From positions 1-58,390 of IMG/VR virus record IMGVR_UViG_3300049259_000203: a stretch of 58,390 bases of DNA, one strand, 5' to 3'. The notes below the pieces were generated by a model that was not told the DNA's origin, did no database searches, and saw only the letters and a program-made list of their open reading frames with translations. This document shows positions 19,829 to 25,866 of the stretch, one piece after another (positions within the stretch are counted from its first letter, which is position 1; the number at the start of each line of letters is the position of its first letter). The position numbers and the translations under genes are program-made. The stretch is from a virus (taxonomy: Duplodnaviria; Caudoviricetes).

Positions 19829-20033
19829 CTGGCAGCCCTCCGGTCTGCTCGAGGACCGCCGTGTGCCGGCGTATCCGTTCCTGCTCCTTCATCACCGCGA
19901 CGCGCAGGTCGCGGGCGTTCTGGCTGGTGGCGCCCCACCGCTCCTCGGCCCTGGCGAGGCGCTCGTATAGCTCGACGATCCTGCGCTCGGCTCGGCGCAG
20001 CCCGGTCCACGCGCGGTAGCGGTCCCATCTCAC
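19716..20033 (-). CDS. Hypothetical coiled-coil protein
   Basis: GTGA overlap with the stop of the ParB-like gene. Confidence 0.5.
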   Translation of the reverse strand: MRWDRYRAWTGLRRAERRIVELYERLARAEERWGATSQNARDLRVAVMKEQERIRRHTAVLEQTGGLPGEGVDPRKAPTSDPDDAVAKPAPSYVRRHPAVRRRRR

Positions 20034-20971
20034 CGGCCCGCCAGGTACTCGGCGGCCATGACCTCCAGCACCTTCCACGTTGGCGTCTCCGGGTCGACGT
20101 CGCCGCAGTCGCGGGCCCGGTCGATCGCCTGCGCGACGACGGCGGCCGCGTCGGCGGGGATCGCCCGGGTGCCGAACAGCGTCTCCAGCGGCGCGGAGCC
20201 CTTGTGCCTGGGCAGGCCGGTGTGCTCGTCGAACCAGCCGGCGCGCAGGTCCTCCAGGTGCCGCTCGCCGAGCGCGATGAGCAGCATCACGGCGGTCGCG
20301 ACGTTCGCGACGTCGTACGCGGTGTGCGTCGTCTCGATGAGGTCCAGCATCGGGTCGTACTCGCGCATCGCGACGAGCCACCGCGAGTCGGCGGGGACGC
20401 TGCGCAGCATCGTCGTGAACGCCTCGCGGGCCCGCTCGACCTCGGCAGGCAGGAACACGAGGCTGATCGTCGTGAAGTCGAGGTTGGCCTCGCCGAGCGC
20501 CCCGACCTCGACCTGCGACAGCAGCTCCAGCACCTTGTCGTCGAGCCCGGAGTATTGCCGCAGGTCGATCTCGGCGATCTCGTCGTAGAGCTGCTTGAGG
20601 ACGCCCGGGTCGTCCTCGCCCTCGATCGCGTTGTGCGAGAGCTGGATCGCGATGCGCCGGTCCTTCGGGATCGGGTCGAGCGCCACCATGACGTAGATCA
20701 CGTCGAGGCCCGCGTCGATCGACGCCCTGATGCGGTGGTTGCCGGAGAGGACCTCCAGCGCGCCGGCGTGCTCGCCTTCGTCGATCGTCCAGCAGAACGG
20801 CGTGCTCGTCAGGCACCCGTCCGCCTTGATGTTCGCGACGAGCTGCCGGTACCGCTCGTTGCGCATGTACCGGGCGTTGAGCTCCAACAGCCGCACGTCG
20901 CGCGGGTTGACCTGCCGGACCTCGGTGCGCAGCTTCCCGAACACGCCGACCGGGTCGAAGACGTCACCCAC
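20030..20971 (-). CDS. ParB/sulfiredoxin N-terminal-domain protein (DNA-modification-associated type)
   Basis: NARYM..LVANIKADG..EVLSGNHRIRA..IQLSHNAI; no obvious Spo0J HTH. Confidence 0.8.
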   Translation of the reverse strand: MGDVFDPVGVFGKLRTEVRQVNPRDVRLLELNARYMRNERYRQLVANIKADGCLTSTPFCWTIDEGEHAGALEVLSGNHRIRASIDAGLDVIYVMVALDPIPKDRRIAIQLSHNAIEGEDDPGVLKQLYDEIAEIDLRQYSGLDDKVLELLSQVEVGALGEANLDFTTISLVFLPAEVERAREAFTTMLRSVPADSRWLVAMREYDPMLDLIETTHTAYDVANVATAVMLLIALGERHLEDLRAGWFDEHTGLPRHKGSAPLETLFGTRAIPADAAAVVAQAIDRARDCGDVDPETPTWKVLEVMAAEYLAGR

Positions 20972-21206
20972 GGGCCCGCTCCCGCCCCTGGTCGGTGAGC
21001 GCGTACCCGACGAGCGTCGACGTGAGCGGCTCGGTGCGCACCAGCCCCTCGTGGATGAGGCGCATCAGCCGGCCGCGCACCGCCCGCCCGTTCGCGTCGC
21101 CGAGCTCGTGACGGACCGCGGTGATCGTCGCCTTCCCGTCGCCGGCGGCCTGCGCCGCGGCGTCGACCGCCCGCAGCACCGCCCGGTCGGTGTCCTCGAT
21201 GGTCAC
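20964..21206 (-). CDS. Small winged-helix protein
   Basis: AVRGRLMRLIHEGLV..YALTDQG. Confidence 0.6.
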   Translation of the reverse strand: MTIEDTDRAVLRAVDAAAQAAGDGKATITAVRHELGDANGRAVRGRLMRLIHEGLVRTEPLTSTLVGYALTDQGRERARG

Positions 21207-21898
21207 GCCGACTCCCGGTGATGACGGTCCAGCACAGCCCACGCCTCGTTCACCCGCTGCATCGCCTCGGTCGTGCCGCCGGCGTCCGGGTGCGCGACCC
21301 GCGACGCGTTGACCTTGATCGTGCGGGCGTACTTGGCGTCGGCGAGCATCCCGTCGATGTCGTTGTCGGTCGGCTCCCGGTCGCCCCACAGCCGGAACAG
21401 CAGCAGCGCCGCGTCCCGCGCGGTGAGCCCGGCACCGATCGCCGTCGCCTGCCCGGGCAGCGCCTTGAAGCCTTGGTACTGCTGCCGGCGCTTCGTCACG
21501 CCGTAGTCGTCGAGGCGCCGCAGCATGACGAGCGCGAGCGCGACGGCGCGGACGTTGTGCTGCCACGACGGCGCCCTGCTCGTTGCCCACTGCGGCCGCC
21601 GGAACGCGTCGCACGGGTACACGTACTCGCCGTCGCTGCCGGTGTTGAACCGGACGACGACCCCGCCGTGCACGAACCGCGCGTCGGCGCGCAGCCCGCC
21701 GTCCTGGCGGATGCCCCGCTCGTCGACCGCCACCTGGATGACGACGATCTTCGCGCCGAGGCGTCCGGCTTCCTTGAGCAGCAGCGTCTTCGTGTCGTCC
21801 CACGACGCGGTGAACGCGCTGTCGGTCACCTTCTCCCCGGCGACGCCGTCCGGCCAGAACACCAGCCGCTCGAACCGCAGGACCGGCAGGTCGCTCAC
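21203..21898 (-). CDS. J-domain (DnaJ-like) protein
   Basis: C-terminal HPDAGG..MQRVNEAW J-domain motif. Confidence 0.75.
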   Translation of the reverse strand: MSDLPVLRFERLVFWPDGVAGEKVTDSAFTASWDDTKTLLLKEAGRLGAKIVVIQVAVDERGIRQDGGLRADARFVHGGVVVRFNTGSDGEYVYPCDAFRRPQWATSRAPSWQHNVRAVALALVMLRRLDDYGVTKRRQQYQGFKALPGQATAIGAGLTARDAALLLFRLWGDREPTDNDIDGMLADAKYARTIKVNASRVAHPDAGGTTEAMQRVNEAWAVLDRHHRESA

Positions 21899-22185
21899 GA
21901 GCCCGCGGGGAGCGCGGGCGCGGTGCCGCCGTACGCCTCGATGACGTCGCCGAAGCCGACGCCGGCGTCGACGGCGGTGCGCGCGATCGCGCCGCGCACC
22001 CGGGCGAGCTCGCGCCGGAGGTCGTCGAGCTCGTCGGCGACCTGGTCCCGCTCCAGCTCGGCGGCGGCCGCCCGCTCGTTGGCTTCCTCGACCATCGCCC
22101 AGGTCGCGCGCCCGCGCTTGTCGCCCTCGTCGGTGGGCGCGGCCGGGGTGGCGGTCTCGGCGGCGCGGGTGTCCAGCTCGGTCAT
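21895..22185 (-). CDS. Hypothetical coiled-coil protein
   Basis: ATGA overlap and GAGGAG RBS. Confidence 0.6.
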   Translation of the reverse strand: MTELDTRAAETATPAAPTDEGDKRGRATWAMVEEANERAAAAELERDQVADELDDLRRELARVRGAIARTAVDAGVGFGDVIEAYGGTAPALPAGS

Positions 22186-23513
22186 GCGGCGCTCCTCTGT
22201 CCGTGTCGGGTCTTCCACTGCTCCAGACCCTCGGCGAGGGTCCAGCGGCCGGCGGCGCTCGTGTAGTTGAGCATCGTCGTGAACTCGGGGTATGGGCTCG
22301 GCTTCCGGCTCGCCAGGTCGAACAGCCCGCGGTACTTCATCGACACCGGCTTGTTCGTGAACGCGGTCGTGTTCACGGTGCGGATGCGGCGGCTCGCCGC
22401 GCGCTGCATCAGCGCCTGCGCCTCGGTCGACAGCGCGGCCGTCAGGACGAGCTTCGACAGCCGCGGGTACCCGGTCGGCGCCACCGCGAAATCACTCAGG
22501 AGATACGCGCTGTACCGGTCGAACTTCGGCGCGCCGACGGCGAACGCGCCGACGAGCAGCCCGTCGACGAGGACGGCGTACGCGTTCATCGGCTGCGCCG
22601 GCGCGATCTTCGGGTCGAGGAAGCGGGAGCGCAGCGTCGCGAACTGCGGCAGCCGCAGCTCGGCGATCTGGAGCCGCTCGCCGATCTCGTCACCAGGCCC
22701 CAGGCAGGGGTTGAGCACCGGCTCGGTCTTCTGGCTCGGCCGGACGACGCGCGCGCCGCGCTCCGAGCTGTACACGTAGATCGTGCGGGCCCGCGCGGTC
22801 TCCTGCACGGTGCCCCGCAGGTACGACCCGAGCTCGGGGTGCGGGACGTTCGTGCCGGTGATCCAGTGCGGCCGGTCGGTGATCGTCTCGATCAGCGCGG
22901 CCACGCCCTCCTCGTCGAGGACCTCGTACTCCGGCGCGGGCCAGTCGAACGCCTCGTGCAGCGCCGCGAACATCGTCTCGTACCCGCCGGTGTCGAACGG
23001 CGGGAACGACGCGACGATGCCGTCGCGGGGGACCTCGCTCATCAGCCACTCGCCGGCGTCGCCGGCGTAGAACGACTCGAGCCGCACCGTCAGCTTCGCG
23101 AGCTTCGCGACCGTCGAGTCGTACAGCCGCGTCCACTGCTCGCGGTACGCCGTCGCCATCCGGTCGAAGTAGGCGTTGCCGGGGCGGTCGATCGCCGGCA
23201 GGAGCCGCGTGCACAGCAGCAGCGTCGCCACCGTGCCGGGGCCGCCGTCGAGGTACGGCCGCAGCCACTCCAGGTCCTCCCGGTCGGGCTTCACGTCGAC
23301 CGGGACCGGCGTGCGGCCGGACAGCCACCAGCCGATCGCGCAGGTGTAGAGCTGGACGTCGTTGCCGTGCAGCCGGCGGCCGGTGGGGGCGAGGGTCCGC
23401 TCGATCGTGAAGTTGCCGGAGCAGGCGACGTACACGTCCTGGTCGGCCGGCCACGACAGCGCGTGCTCGGCGATAATCGCGCGGAGCGGCTGCGGGAGGC
23501 TACCGAGAAACAT
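22182..23513 (-). CDS. Amino-methyltransferase-like domain fused to a GNAT/Mom-like domain (putative DNA base-modification enzyme)
   Basis: Start MFLGSLP at 23513. N-half has VYVACSGNF (motif I-like), GND, and SFPPF (degenerate motif IV). C-half has YAVLVDGLLVGAF..YLLSDFAV..RLSKLVL..TTAFT..MKYRG (GNAT-like). Confidence 0.7.
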   Translation of the reverse strand: MFLGSLPQPLRAIIAEHALSWPADQDVYVACSGNFTIERTLAPTGRRLHGNDVQLYTCAIGWWLSGRTPVPVDVKPDREDLEWLRPYLDGGPGTVATLLLCTRLLPAIDRPGNAYFDRMATAYREQWTRLYDSTVAKLAKLTVRLESFYAGDAGEWLMSEVPRDGIVASFPPFDTGGYETMFAALHEAFDWPAPEYEVLDEEGVAALIETITDRPHWITGTNVPHPELGSYLRGTVQETARARTIYVYSSERGARVVRPSQKTEPVLNPCLGPGDEIGERLQIAELRLPQFATLRSRFLDPKIAPAQPMNAYAVLVDGLLVGAFAVGAPKFDRYSAYLLSDFAVAPTGYPRLSKLVLTAALSTEAQALMQRAASRRIRTVNTTAFTNKPVSMKYRGLFDLASRKPSPYPEFTTMLNYTSAAGRWTLAEGLEQWKTRHGQRSAA

Positions 23514-23736
23514 CGACCACGTCGAAGCCGTCGGAGCGCAGGTGGTCGAGGACCTCGTCGACGTCGACGTGCGGGGGGCGCACGTACAGGAGGCCGATCG
23601 TGACGATCGGCGACTCGTTGCCGACGCCGTACTCGGTGCACACACTCGCGACCTGCTCGTACTGGCTGCGCAGCGCGCGCAGCGCGACCTCGTCGGCGGT
23701 CGACCGCGGCCGTACCGTGATCGTCGGGTAGTGCAT
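23500..23736 (-). CDS. Small hypothetical protein
   Basis: AAGGAGG RBS before MHYPTIT. Confidence 0.7.
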   Translation of the reverse strand: MHYPTITVRPRSTADEVALRALRSQYEQVASVCTEYGVGNESPIVTIGLLYVRPPHVDVDEVLDHLRSDGFDVVDVSR

Positions 23737-23751
23737 CGTCGTACCTCCTTG

Positions 23752-23822
23752 AGCGCCGGGGAGGACTCGAACCTCCGCACCACGACTGGTCGCCGTGGGA
23801 GTGCCCGCTGCACTGCCGACGC
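23752..23822 (-). tRNA. Non-canonical tRNA-Gly-like element
   Basis: Cloverleaf: acceptor GCGTCGG/CCGGCGC plus discriminator T; D-arm GTGC-AGCGG-GCAC; anticodon arm CACGG-CGACCAG-TCGTG; T-arm GGAGG-TTCGAGT-CCTCC. No encoded CCA. Confidence 0.7.
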
Positions 23823-23857
23823 GGGACCGGGCCCCACCCCTCGCGGGGCCCGGTGGT

Positions 23858-24271
23858 CTAGCGGCCGAGCGGTAGTGCGTCCCGTTCGGCGTCGCGGCCG
23901 AGCTCGGGCACCGGCTCGCCGGTGTTCTGCGTCCACCACTCGGCGAAGATGCGGCGGTGGCACCACAGGTCCGGCTTGCCGAGGTCCTCGAAGCAGAGCA
24001 GGACGAGGGTCTCCTCGCCGGCCTGGTCGGCGACCGCCTGGCACTCGGCCGCGATGCGGGCGACGCCGGCGGCGTCGAGCCGGGCGACGTAGAGCTTGGT
24101 GTAGGCCGGCCGCTCCAGCCGGAGCCACGCCCGGTCGGGGTAGAGGGTCGGGAGCGCGTGGACGAGCGGGTACTTGGTGCCGTACCGGGGTGCTCCGATG
24201 CTCGTCCTGACGGGCACGCCCATCGGCTCGCGGAACTGCGAGTACGAGCAGGTGCGTAGGTCGAAAGCCAC
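23858..24271 (-). CDS. DUF488-family protein
   Basis: TCSY..PVRTSIGAP..LYP..LVLLCFE..WCHRRIFAEW. Confidence 0.75.
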   Translation of the reverse strand: MAFDLRTCSYSQFREPMGVPVRTSIGAPRYGTKYPLVHALPTLYPDRAWLRLERPAYTKLYVARLDAAGVARIAAECQAVADQAGEETLVLLCFEDLGKPDLWCHRRIFAEWWTQNTGEPVPELGRDAERDALPLGR

Positions 24272-24274
24272 TGG

Positions 24275-24345
24275 TCGGTCCTCCTGTGAGAGGTTGGTGT
24301 GCTGATCCCAATGTACATGATGTAGGCACAGAGAGTGCGGGTTTG
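24275..24345 (-). promoter_or_regulatory. Probable promoter/operator and extended RBS for the DUF488-tRNA-like-MTase/GNAT operon
   Basis: AT-rich gap containing ATGTACAT and the CTCTCACAGGAGGACC start motif; only a partial match to the promoter repeat. Confidence 0.5.
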
Positions 24346-24346
24346 G

Positions 24347-25264
24347 TCAGGTGGTCGGCGTGTCGCCGCGGGCGTCCTCCAACCTCGCCGTCGCGAGCGA
24401 CAGCGCCTTCGCGCGGCGCATCGTGCGCCGCGCCCTGAGCATCTGCTGGTACACGGCCTCGAACCGCTCGGCGTGCAGCCCGAGCTCCCCGGACAGCGCG
24501 CTGGCGAGGTCCTCCGGCCGCAGGATCGCGATGTCGGCGAGGAGCGCGCTCACGCCGTACAGCCGCTCGATCGCGTGCCGCGTCTCCTTCCGGCGCCGCC
24601 GCTGCTGCTCGACCTGCTCGGGTGTGCGGTCGTCCGGCCAGAACGCCGTCTGCTGCTCGCCGAGCTTGAGCGCCCGCGCGAAGTCGACGGCGTCGGTCTC
24701 GGTGGGGAAGTCGCCGCGGACGTACCGCGCGACGGCGTGCCGCTGGCTCGCCGGCGAGAGCTGCGCGATGTAGTACGCCGGCGTGATCTTCAACGCGCCG
24801 GCGTCGACGAGCGGCCAGAAGTCCTCGCGCAGCGTGAGCAGCCCCATCCGCCAGTGCACGTACTCGGTGCTCTTGCCGAACCGCTTCGCGATCGTTGCGA
24901 CGTCGCGGCCGGCGGCGTGCAGGAAGCCGTACGCCGCGACCTCCTCCATGATCGTCATGTCGGCGCGGTTGACGTTCTCGGCGACGCTCGCCTCGAACGC
25001 CTCGACGTCGTCGGTGAGCCCGTCGAACACGATCGACGGGATGTCGGTCACGTCGGCGAGCCGGGCAGCGCGCCAGCGGCGCTCGCCGGCGACGATCAGG
25101 TAGCGGCCCTCGTCGGCCGGGCGGACAAGGATCGGCTCGAGGACGCCGAGCTCGGCGATCAACGCGGCCAGCTCCGCGAGCTTCGCCTCGTCGAAGTGCT
25201 TGCGCGGCTGCCGCGGGTCCCGGTCGATCTGGTCGAGCGGGAGGACGTCGTACCGGGGGCGCAT
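24347..25264 (-). CDS. ParB/Spo0J-family protein
   Basis: QPRKHFD..GVLEPILVR..YLIVAGERRWRAA..ENVNRAD..HTH (IAKRFGKS). Confidence 0.9.
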   Translation of the reverse strand: MRPRYDVLPLDQIDRDPRQPRKHFDEAKLAELAALIAELGVLEPILVRPADEGRYLIVAGERRWRAARLADVTDIPSIVFDGLTDDVEAFEASVAENVNRADMTIMEEVAAYGFLHAAGRDVATIAKRFGKSTEYVHWRMGLLTLREDFWPLVDAGALKITPAYYIAQLSPASQRHAVARYVRGDFPTETDAVDFARALKLGEQQTAFWPDDRTPEQVEQQRRRRKETRHAIERLYGVSALLADIAILRPEDLASALSGELGLHAERFEAVYQQMLRARRTMRRAKALSLATARLEDARGDTPTT

Positions 25265-25866
25265 CACGACACGGCCTCCGCGGTGGCGCACCGCTCGCAC
25301 TCCCGGCCGTCGCGCACCGCGTCGACGTCGGTCAGGACGCGCCGGCAGCCTGCCCGCACGCAGCAGAGCTGGAGGGCCACCCAGCGGCCGATGTCCACGA
25401 GCAGGTCCCGTACGACGTCGTCGGCGGCGTCCTGGACGCTGGCCGGCGCGGTGTCGACCGGTGCCTGCCACGTTCCGGTCTCCAGCACGACCCGCAGCGC
25501 GTGGTCACCGGTGAGCGTCCCGACGATGCCGAGCGCCTGGGTGGCGAGCGTCGCGACGATGTCCGCGAAGTCGTCCGCCGACCGGGCGGTCATGTCGAGG
25601 GACTCGACCAGGTCGCTGATCGCGGTGATCGACACCAGCTCGGCGGGGTCGTCACCGTCGAGGACGCCGGCGAGGTAGTCCCCCGCGCGCGAGCGCCAGG
25701 CGGTGTCGGCACCGCGCCATGCCGGCCAGACGTACTGGATGAGCGTCGCGCGCGTCACGTCGACGTCGCCCTTGTCGGCGGCCGGCGCCCACAGCGCCTC
25801 GGGCACGTCGAGCGCGGCGGCGGTCCGGCGCGTGAGCAGCACCGTCGCGTCTTCCGGCCCGGTCAC
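25264..25866 (-). CDS. Hypothetical protein with C-terminal Zn-finger
   Basis: GTGA overlap; CxxxxC..CERC. Confidence 0.6.
   Translation of the reverse strand: MTGPEDATVLLTRRTAAALDVPEALWAPAADKGDVDVTRATLIQYVWPAWRGADTAWRSRAGDYLAGVLDGDDPAELVSITAISDLVESLDMTARSADDFADIVATLATQALGIVGTLTGDHALRVVLETGTWQAPVDTAPASVQDAADDVVRDLLVDIGRWVALQLCCVRAGCRRVLTDVDAVRDGRECERCATAEAVS

Follow-up and report, generated by a model that had tools for sequence, protein, structure and literature searches.

The stretch of DNA analysed here, called the window throughout, spans 58,390 bases with a GC content of 73% and, being bounded by direct terminal repeats, looks like a complete viral record (IMGVR_UViG_3300049259_000203; Caudoviricetes). 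Its minus strand carries a gene string centred on a protein in which a Dam-like domain is fused to a GNAT-like domain. Together with a DUF488-like gene, a tRNA-Gly-like RNA and a gene for a ParB-like partner, the fusion gene forms a kit that recurs in related viral and bacterial-genome loci, and which is probably a post-replicative DNA adenine modification module with its own glycyl carrier. In the window, the genes concerned all sit on the minus strand and either overlap slightly or are separated by small gaps, and the members of the kit are placed as follows:

23858..24271, minus strand: DUF488-like protein, 137 amino acids (aa), first gene of the conserved kit; conserved LLCFE...WCHR motif; PHROG 2450, E 3e-15
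23751..23822, minus strand: tRNA-Gly-like RNA, 72 nucleotides (nt); tRNA-Gly(ACC) by ARAGORN; 57.9 bits, E 3.5e-10 with the covariance model R1
22182..23513, minus strand: Dam-like/GNAT fusion, 443 aa; PF22555 plus PF22559; 237 nt downstream of the tRNA-like gene
22707..23510, minus strand: Dam-like domain, fusion residues 2-269; PF22555 (DAM-like-phage1), E 6.7e-86; FPPF replaces DPPY
22200..22679, minus strand: GNAT-like domain, fusion residues 279-438; PF22559 (GNAT-phage-like), E 1.5e-50
20030..20971, minus strand: ParB/Srx-like partner, 313 aa; SGNHR, QLSHNAIxGEDD and SGLDDK motifs; PHROG 7405, E 3.2e-66

Relatives of the fusion (22182-23513) numbered 690 at E<=0.001 among 8,000 scored candidates. 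Two sets of loci were compared, one consisting of the best 80 of 122 confirmed viral loci and the GenBank phages Argie and Sting (2 of 15 matching records), which makes 82, and the other of the best 80 of 175 confirmed bacterial-genome loci, which brings the total to 162. The hosts of the genome loci are mainly Streptomyces, Micromonospora and Actinoplanes, with one Neobacillus. Ten viral loci (L053-L062) are near-identical contigs from one metagenome, and the locus counts given here therefore overstate independence. A megablast search of GenBank phages with the region as query found no match.

The ParB-like gene lies downstream of the fusion gene, on the same strand, in every locus (82/82 and 80/80), and immediately downstream in nearly all of them. 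A DUF488-like gene precedes the fusion in 96 of the 162 loci (49/82 and 47/80), usually just before the tRNA.

The tRNA-Gly-like RNA family

Gly-type tRNA-like elements accompany the fusion gene in both sets. Among the viral and phage loci, 51 of 82 have one on the strand of the fusion and no more than 400 nt upstream of it, three have it further upstream (467, 1728 and 4262 nt) and two have it directly after the ParB-like gene, while two loci offer too little upstream sequence to judge. In the genome set the element was found in 40 of 80 loci, always on the same strand and upstream of the fusion, and all 92 elements in the 162 loci are of the Gly type. The model R1 was built from an alignment of 39 of the Gly-type elements that ARAGORN called, and it picked up further copies that had escaped ARAGORN, among them one in Gordonia phage Sting. 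Where the element follows the ParB-like gene (L024:2760-2833 and L065:7264-7340), it still lies inside the gene string, and two other loci carry two Gly-type copies upstream of the fusion (L059:3245-3408, and L060:1478-1626, in which the copies are 1 nt apart).

Features were counted on these 92 elements, 86 of them distinct, in an alignment fitted to R1. In the alignment of 39 elements from which R1 was built, the 21 pairs of the cloverleaf are paired in 96.8% of the cells, compared with 67.5% in shuffles, and the covariation score was 0.74 versus 0.18, a value reached by none of 500 shuffles; slid controls paired in 39-43%. The expectation of the initial annotation that co-conserved cloverleafs with covariation would be found upstream of the homologues was thus borne out in 51 of 82 and 40 of 80 loci.

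The identity set recognised by bacterial glycyl-tRNA synthetase (GlyRS) consists of G1-C72, C2-G71, G3-C70, U73, C35 and C36. The acceptor-stem sequence GCG...CGC together with U73 is present in 86 of the 86 distinct elements, while acceptor pairs 4-7 vary freely, and 85 of 86 have an NCC anticodon, which is TCC in 50, CCC in 22, ACC in 13 and never GCC. Positions that are universal among tRNAs are frequently altered: U8 is missing in 27 of the 86 and U33 in 30, the D-loop lacks GG in 43, the T-loop reads TGC instead of TTC (U55 to G) in 17, A34 occurs in 13, position 37 is a pyrimidine in 11, and the anticodon loop has 6 or 8 nt in 8. CCA is encoded in 42 of 86. At least one universal feature is broken in 83 of 86 elements, and only 2 of 13 sampled elements reached the gathering score of the Rfam tRNA model RF00005 (29 bits). 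Judged from sequence, the family thus appears to fit the earlier description of an RNA that keeps its glycine determinants, the identity set being present in 86/86, and yet would be poorly built for decoding.

The window's own copy is the one gene that ARAGORN found in all 58,390 bases, and RF00005 did not match it, whether at the gathering score, in a 1-kb search at E<=10 or in a search of the whole record. It keeps the entire identity set (G1-C72, C2-G71, G3-C70, U73, C35, C36) and a perfect T-arm; it deviates in having C8, G33 and A34, and it encodes no CCA. Two of the four D-arm pairs are mismatched in the family register, or alternatively the D-arm has a 5-nt loop. The T-loop, TTCGAGT, has the normal TTC and not the TGC or TGT of the staphylococcal non-proteogenic type. 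Nor did RF00005 detect a tRNA anywhere in the complete Argie and Sting genomes, and in all three phage genomes (the window's, Argie and Sting) the Gly-type element is the sole tRNA. In the flanks of the 80 viral loci, ARAGORN found only two other tRNAs, for Leu and Met.

We then compared the elements with the tRNA-Gly genes of their hosts. In two Streptomyces genomes, the host tRNA-Gly genes (UCC, CCC and GCC) have no deviations as judged by eye, whereas the resident elements deviate. Three elements, two of them from those genomes, are 51-62% identical to the host tRNA-Gly, compared with 68-77% among the elements themselves, and the elements nearest to the window RNA (75-77%) belong to the nearest fusion genes. 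Because the elements resemble one another more than they resemble host tRNA-Gly, and because the nearest elements match the nearest fusions, the sequence comparison points to an element that was co-inherited with the enzyme and not recently captured from the host. A role of the tRNA as an integration site was considered and rejected, as the complete cloverleaf stands mid-genome in a record bounded by direct terminal repeats, at a fixed place relative to the fusion; its 51-62% identity to host tRNA-Gly of the two Streptomyces genomes also counters that reading.

When mapped on a FastTree phylogeny of the fusion proteins, the element is spread over the whole tree, in loci whose GC content ranges from 0.37 to 0.73, and the tree requires at least eight gains or losses of the element. 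Of the 24 viral loci without an element, 16 form one Streptomyces-like clade of integrated elements (L007, L010-L018, L021, L023, L026, L027, L078 and L081), in which no tRNA element was found, also with filters off (a search that covered 9 of the 24 loci). In most members of this clade the DUF488-like gene precedes the fusion at a distance of 120-150 nt, which rises to as much as about 420 nt in L010 and L078, and the ParB-like gene comes next.

The Dam-like/GNAT fusion and its known counterparts

Both Pfam domains (cut-offs of 27 bits) are present in 120 of the 120 listed relatives of the fusion. The full-length protein was modelled with a pLDDT of 89.7, and its first 250 residues match Dam best in VIA-align: E. 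coli Dam (2g1p_A) with a Z of 13.8 over 190 aligned residues, T4 Dam (1yf3_B) with a Z of 13.8 over 187, and DpnM (2dpm) with a Z of 12.8 over 197, whereas generic Rossmann methyltransferases align over about 145 residues. The catalytic motif IV of Dam-type enzymes is (D/N/S)PP(Y/F), and the Asp of DPPY contacts the target amino group in such methyltransferases. In the fusion this motif is FPPF (F170, P171, P172, F173), invariant in 27 of 27 aligned sequences, and since FPPF replaces DPPY, the amino-contacting residue is missing from the Dam-like half. The stretches C-S-G-N-F-T and N-D-V are also conserved, with G33, D52 and V53 invariant, and from the alignment they could be the equivalents of motif I for S-adenosylmethionine (SAM; FxGxG) and of the acidic residue after strand 2. 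A search of the Protein Data Bank (PDB) with the fusion profile returned only spurious CaMKII matches at E>=0.06 and no sequence match to any solved Dam. The half that was initially called amino-MTase-like has the Dam fold with its DNA-recognition insert, over a long aligned region (187-197 residues), and keeps the PP-aromatic part of motif IV, but it differs from Dam in the Phe that stands for the Asp of DPPY in 27/27 sequences, in the lack of a sequence match and in being always fused to a GNAT domain. On this sequence reading, the label 'MTase' overstates what the half is.

Modelled alone, the GNAT domain reached a pLDDT of 95.7 and adopts a standard GNAT fold; the fold of the model (Foldseek and VIA) and the PF22559 match agree with the initial assignment of the C-terminal domain as GNAT-like. 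In an exhaustive VIA comparison with 48,161 chains, Mom of phage Mu (8bv8_B) ranked second, with a Z of 11.0 and a root-mean-square deviation of 3.2 A over 139 aligned residues. Mom was not among the top 50 Foldseek matches of either the full-length or the GNAT model, and a PDB search with the GNAT profile gave nothing below E 1.4. The last two strands of the GNAT model (E130-137 and E145-152) are separated by about 7 residues, with no helix pair. The catalytic residues of Mom are R111, S124, D149 and R151, and the window domain has an invariant set of its own, which comprises D73, K86 (90% or more), T114, T115, S123, K125, Y126, R127 and G128.

The main text of Silva et al. (Nat Commun 2026, PMC13219725) reports that Mom transfers glycine from Gly-tRNAGly to the N6 of adenine in double-stranded DNA, followed by a rearrangement, and that a helix-turn-helix (HTH)-like insertion in Mom (residues about 175-209) is essential for activity. 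The use of Gly-tRNA by Mom, which the initial annotation had mentioned as reported, is thus in print, and the words fusion, fused, methyltransferase and Mycobacteri are absent from that main text. Like Mom (PF25680; PDB 8bv8), the window protein has a single phage GNAT-fold domain and DNA adenine as its presumed target; glycyl-tRNAGly is the demonstrated donor of Mom according to the same main text, and in the window kit a tRNA-Gly gene is physically linked. Unlike Mom, the window GNAT domain has no sequence relation to it and no helix pair at the site of the HTH-like insertion, and for these two reasons it is not a member of the Mom family (PF25680). Judging by the model, it may nevertheless work like Mom. 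DNA handling in the window kit would presumably fall to the fused Dam-like domain and the separate ParB-like protein, and whereas Mom draws on host tRNAs, kits of the window type usually carry a deviant tRNA of their own. The domain comparison proposed in the initial annotation therefore held for the fold of Dam and, tied with generic GNATs, for the fold of Mom, and failed for a sequence relation to Mom.

True Mom loci (PF25680) from viruses were searched with R1 as well, and 3 of 75 have a tRNA-Gly(UCC) on the same strand 120-205 nt upstream of mom. These three tRNAs (L242:2800-2873, L245:2806-2879 and L247:2724-2797) look canonical by eye, and another Mom locus (L237) has a partial R1 match at the same place.

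Staphylococci offer a counterpart to the RNA. Passages of PMC7826273 describe non-proteogenic tRNA-Gly species with a TGC or TGT T-loop as their hallmark, which have little affinity for EF-Tu and are the substrates that Fem transferases prefer. As with the staphylococcal tRNA-Gly used by FmhB, FemA and FemB in that description, the elements found here are extra species that keep the glycine charging determinants and depart from translation-competent tRNAs. The staphylococcal species, too, serve a GNAT-fold Fem aminoacyl-transferase, and their TGC T-loop is common to 17 of our 86 elements. They are cellular, however, all have the anticodon UCC and feed peptidoglycan synthesis, whereas the elements described here are borne by phages or mobile elements and stand beside their presumed user. 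Compared with the staphylococcal tRNAs of those passages, our elements also deviate more (non-U33, A34, odd sizes of the anticodon loop), and the window's T-loop has the normal TTC.

The pairing with a ParB-like gene also has a parallel. Passages of a 2026 PNAS paper (PMC13229309) report that ParB-like proteins activate phage T-dioxygenases. In those ParB-dependent enzymes (5mYOX), as in the kit, a post-replicative base-modifying enzyme of a phage would stand beside a cognate ParB-like protein; the T-dioxygenases belong to another enzyme class than the window fusion, being Fe/2OG dioxygenases that act on thymine.

The GNAT domain family comprises 958 clusters at 50% identity (E<=0.001), and in most of the best 150 representatives the domain is C-terminal in a protein of about 430-480 aa. 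Some relatives are 600-720 aa long (P0005, P0261, P0304 and P0361 have about 700-720 aa), which suggests that longer fusions with an extra N-terminal enzyme domain exist. One relative of 700 aa (P0032) has PF14528 (LAGLIDADG-type) besides both usual domains, which may be an intein or a homing-endonuclease insertion. The GNAT part also has a match (E 7.5e-10) to positions 670-778 of the 801-position profile of PHROG 2443, 'amidoligase enzyme'. NCBI and UniRef name relatives of the fusion 'putative antirestriction adenine methyltransferase'. A literature search covering the fusion, the names or identifiers of PF22555 and PF22559, the phrase 'antirestriction adenine methyltransferase' and the kit's combination of DUF488, ParB, GNAT, Mom and tRNA found no paper, the supplements of PMC13219725 being outside its scope.

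A candidate mechanism and its rivals

In the mechanism that we consider probable, host RNase P and 3' trimming would cut the RNA out of the operon transcript and CCA would be added; co-transcription of the locus genes is inferred from their layout alone. Host GlyRS would then charge the RNA, on the basis of the identity set kept in the family. Because universal tRNA positions are lost in the sequence, the RNA would be a poor substrate for EF-Tu and the ribosome, and the loss of U8, G18G19, U33, R37 and U55 would thereby leave it available to the enzyme. The Dam-like half, with its Dam fold and FPPF, would bind DNA and flip out the target adenine without methylating it, and the GNAT half would move glycine from the 3' end of the tRNA onto the adenine, as in Mom of Mu, with N6-carbamoylmethyl-adenine or a relative as the possible final product. 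The ParB-like partner would load or activate the enzyme on DNA, as ParB-like proteins are reported to do for phage T-dioxygenases, and the outcome would be phage DNA that is shielded from host nucleases. When a complex of the fusion with its ParB-like partner was predicted, no answer was obtained (score 0.01), which weighs neither way.

Several results weigh against this mechanism. The tRNA-like element is absent from 24 of the 80 evaluable viral and phage loci, a filters-off model search of 9 of these 24 found no element, and it is also absent from 40 of the 80 genome loci; the tRNA is therefore an optional helper and not a necessity. The GNAT part has no match to PF25680 at E<=10, BLASTP against Mu Mom gave E 1.4, and hhalign against an alignment of 20 Mom sequences gave the whole protein a probability of 0.6% and the domain one of 7.9%. 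In structure, ordinary acetyl-CoA GNATs, at Z 10-11.6, match the domain as well as Mom does, and the donor may therefore be an acyl-CoA. R1 gives canonical host tRNA-Gly 72-77 bits, as high as the elements, and the 'private' status of the RNA thus rests on its deviant positions and not on the model; 3 of the 86 elements have no deviation at all. The window copy ranks 83 of 92 by score, among the lowest, and could be decaying. Finally, GGA makes up 5.8% of the Gly codons in the phage and is read by UCC, the commonest anticodon of the family, and the supply of a rare codon is the classical reason for a phage to carry a tRNA. The modification module is put forward as probable, and not more firmly, because the likeness to Mom is at the level of the fold only and about a third to a half of the loci do without the tRNA.

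The codon usage leads to a first rival, in which the RNA is an ordinary decoding tRNA that supplies a rare glycine codon and stands beside the fusion by hitch-hiking, without functional coupling. It agrees with UCC as the commonest anticodon (50/86), with the low share of GGA and also of GGU (8.6%) among the Gly codons of the phage, with the acceptance of most copies by ARAGORN, with the three copies free of deviant positions and with the dispensability of the tRNA in many loci. We nevertheless regard it as quite unlikely: the same-strand adjacency is held across GC contents of 0.37-0.73 and across the whole protein tree, in two loci the tRNA has shifted to the opposite end of the operon but stayed within it, three phage genomes have no tRNA besides this element, and positions that are universal in decoding or tertiary structure are broken in 83 of 86 copies (30 without U33, 13 with A34, 8 with odd anticodon loops). 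The invariance of the glycine determinants bears on another reading, that the cloverleaf is a cis-acting RNA, either an RNase P processing or stability signal for the 5' end of the fusion mRNA or a sensor of the tRNA-Gly pool. The location of the RNA between the DUF488-like gene and the fusion in one apparent transcript, behind a strong hairpin, would suit such a role, as would the ribosome-binding site (RBS) that abuts its 3' end in the window, and tRNA-like punctuation of polycistronic transcripts is established elsewhere. A processing signal, however, would need neither an invariant GlyRS identity set nor an NCC anticodon (85/86) while acceptor pairs 4-7 vary; moreover, CCA is encoded in 42 of 86 copies and in five loci the element lies away from the 5' end of the fusion, and we give the cis-acting reading a low probability.

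The other two rivals concern the enzyme. The fusion could be what its database name says, an antirestriction adenine methyltransferase, with an acetyl-CoA GNAT domain that acts on a protein or small molecule and with the tRNA irrelevant to it. Besides the NCBI and UniRef names, this has on its side the Dam fold of the N-terminal domain, the conserved G33, D52 and V53, which on a reading of the alignment may mark a retained cofactor pocket, and a GNAT domain that fits acetyl-CoA GNATs as well as it fits Mom. On the other hand, the Asp of motif IV is Phe in 27 of 27 sequences, the acetyl-CoA loop Q/RxxGxG/A of GNAT enzymes was not seen by eye in the alignment of the GNAT domain, and the linked Gly-type RNA is left unexplained, which makes this explanation very improbable. 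Least probable of all is that the tRNA is the target and not the donor, the GNAT half acting on Gly-tRNAGly in the manner of the TacT toxins, or the RNA being a decoy or a replacement for an attacked host tRNA-Gly. Phage tRNAs that replace cleaved host tRNAs are known, and the main text of PMC13219725 mentions GNAT toxins that acetylate charged tRNA, including Gly-tRNAGly (TacT, PDB 7F36). Against this, the GNAT domain is always fused to the Dam-like DNA domain (120/120 listed relatives) and the ParB-like gene always follows (162/162 loci), and this constant fusion and constant neighbour indicate DNA as the substrate.

A more far-reaching version of the adenine modification module, which we think rather unlikely, is a self-contained orthogonal aminoacyl-transfer system for DNA, in which a phage tRNA that has evolved off the ribosome is charged by host GlyRS and used only by the neighbouring enzyme. 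The dead Dam fold of this enzyme would flip the adenine and might hold the glycyl-adenosine end of the tRNA in what was once its SAM pocket, the GNAT fold would catalyse the transfer, and a ParB-like protein, acting as a nucleotide switch, would license the reaction on phage DNA. It would amount to the first virus-encoded non-translational tRNA and to a new hypermodified adenine in actinobacteriophage DNA.

To our knowledge, tRNA-dependent DNA modification has one proven case, Mom, which uses host tRNA. If the module works as we propose, a different enzyme architecture for such chemistry would be present in many phages and integrated elements, both in Actinomycetota and in lower-GC hosts. Many of them would bring along a dedicated carrier RNA, in parallel to the cell-wall tRNAs of staphylococci, and tRNA and enzyme would form a natural orthogonal pair. 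The single 'orphan' tRNA genes of some phages, Mycobacterium phage Argie among them, would find an explanation, the database name 'antirestriction adenine methyltransferase' would have to be corrected, and one would expect an unrecognised modified base with effects on how the DNAs of these phages are restricted, sequenced and cloned. Culturable carriers exist among the phages of M. smegmatis mc2 155 and of Gordonia. What the window adds is a tRNA copy that is among the more deviant ones, and an arrangement in which the fusion and ParB-like genes are split apart.

Neighbouring genes in the window

The remaining features of the locus are the following:

24347..25270, minus strand: canonical ParB, directly upstream of the kit; ParB_N E 1.8e-25, HTH_ParB E 4.3e-05; start codon uncertain, the open reading frame (ORF) extending to 25471
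23826..23854 (about), minus strand: 12-bp GC-rich hairpin in the minimum-free-energy fold, between the stop codon of the DUF488-like gene and the tRNA-like RNA; no U-tract after it
23500..23736, minus strand: 78-aa ORF; its AAGGAGG RBS abuts the 3' end of the tRNA-like RNA, and its end overlaps the ATG of the fusion by 14 nt
21895..22218, minus strand: 107-aa ORF specific to the window, inserted between the genes for the fusion and the ParB-like partner; no family match below E 0.01
21203..21898, minus strand: 231-aa 'J-like' protein, a window-specific insert; C-terminal HPD motif; PHROG 9210, E 7.9e-24 (function not annotated)
20964..21218, minus strand: small, possibly winged-helix protein, a window-specific insert; sub-threshold PaaX, PadR and HxlR matches at E 0.1-0.2; start uncertain

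The layout is as first described, with the DUF488-like gene, hairpin, cloverleaf, 78-aa ORF, fusion, J-like, winged-helix-like and ParB-like genes in this order on the minus strand. The window arrangement is split, in that three inserted genes part the fusion from its ParB-like partner and one gene parts the RNA from the fusion. No homologue of the 78-aa, 107-aa, J-like or winged-helix genes was found in any of the 162 related loci, and these four are therefore local inserts and not parts of the system. Of the operon members counted into the system initially, the ParB-like gene (162/162) and the DUF488-like gene (96/162) have kept their place, whereas the 78-aa, J-like and winged-helix genes (0/162) have lost it. 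The 231-aa protein had been called a J-domain protein; it matches no Pfam family at E<=10, DnaJ included, and has the HPD tripeptide only. The 78-aa ORF has no Pfam, NCBIfam or PHROG match, and an NCBIfam search of six locus proteins returned nothing significant.

The ParB-like and DUF488-like neighbours could be named in part. For the ParB/Srx fold that had been assigned to the partner (20030-20971), PHROG families of ParB-like proteins at about 1e-7 and the conserved SGNHR box speak in favour, but ParB_N itself matched at E 0.062, below the cut-off. Similarly, the window's DUF488-like protein matches Pfam DUF488 at E 0.044 with 14.8 bits, below the cut-off of 22.2 bits; among 15 relatives, 8 match PF22751 (DUF488-N3a) and 6 match PF04343 at E<=0.01. 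A PDB search with the profile of the DUF488-like protein found nothing below E 0.27. Homologues of the canonical ParB precede the fusion in 16 of the 82 viral and phage loci and in 45 of the 80 genome loci.

Among the sequencing runs listed for the window, one DNA run from a soil metagenome may be its source, two more runs of that study contain next to none of its sequence words, and none is an RNA run. A promoter scan of the locus found no sigma-70-like promoter. Two terminator-like sites, the sole ones in the scan, were regarded as false, since both overlap the start codon of the fusion. Further downstream, about 1.7 kb from the ParB-like gene, lies a gene for a DUF5131 protein (phage Gp37/Gp68-like; 17450-18340, minus strand; E 5.4e-58), of which no homologue was found within the flanks of the related loci. 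The overlap between the 78-aa ORF and the fusion gene resembles the layout of com and mom in Mu.

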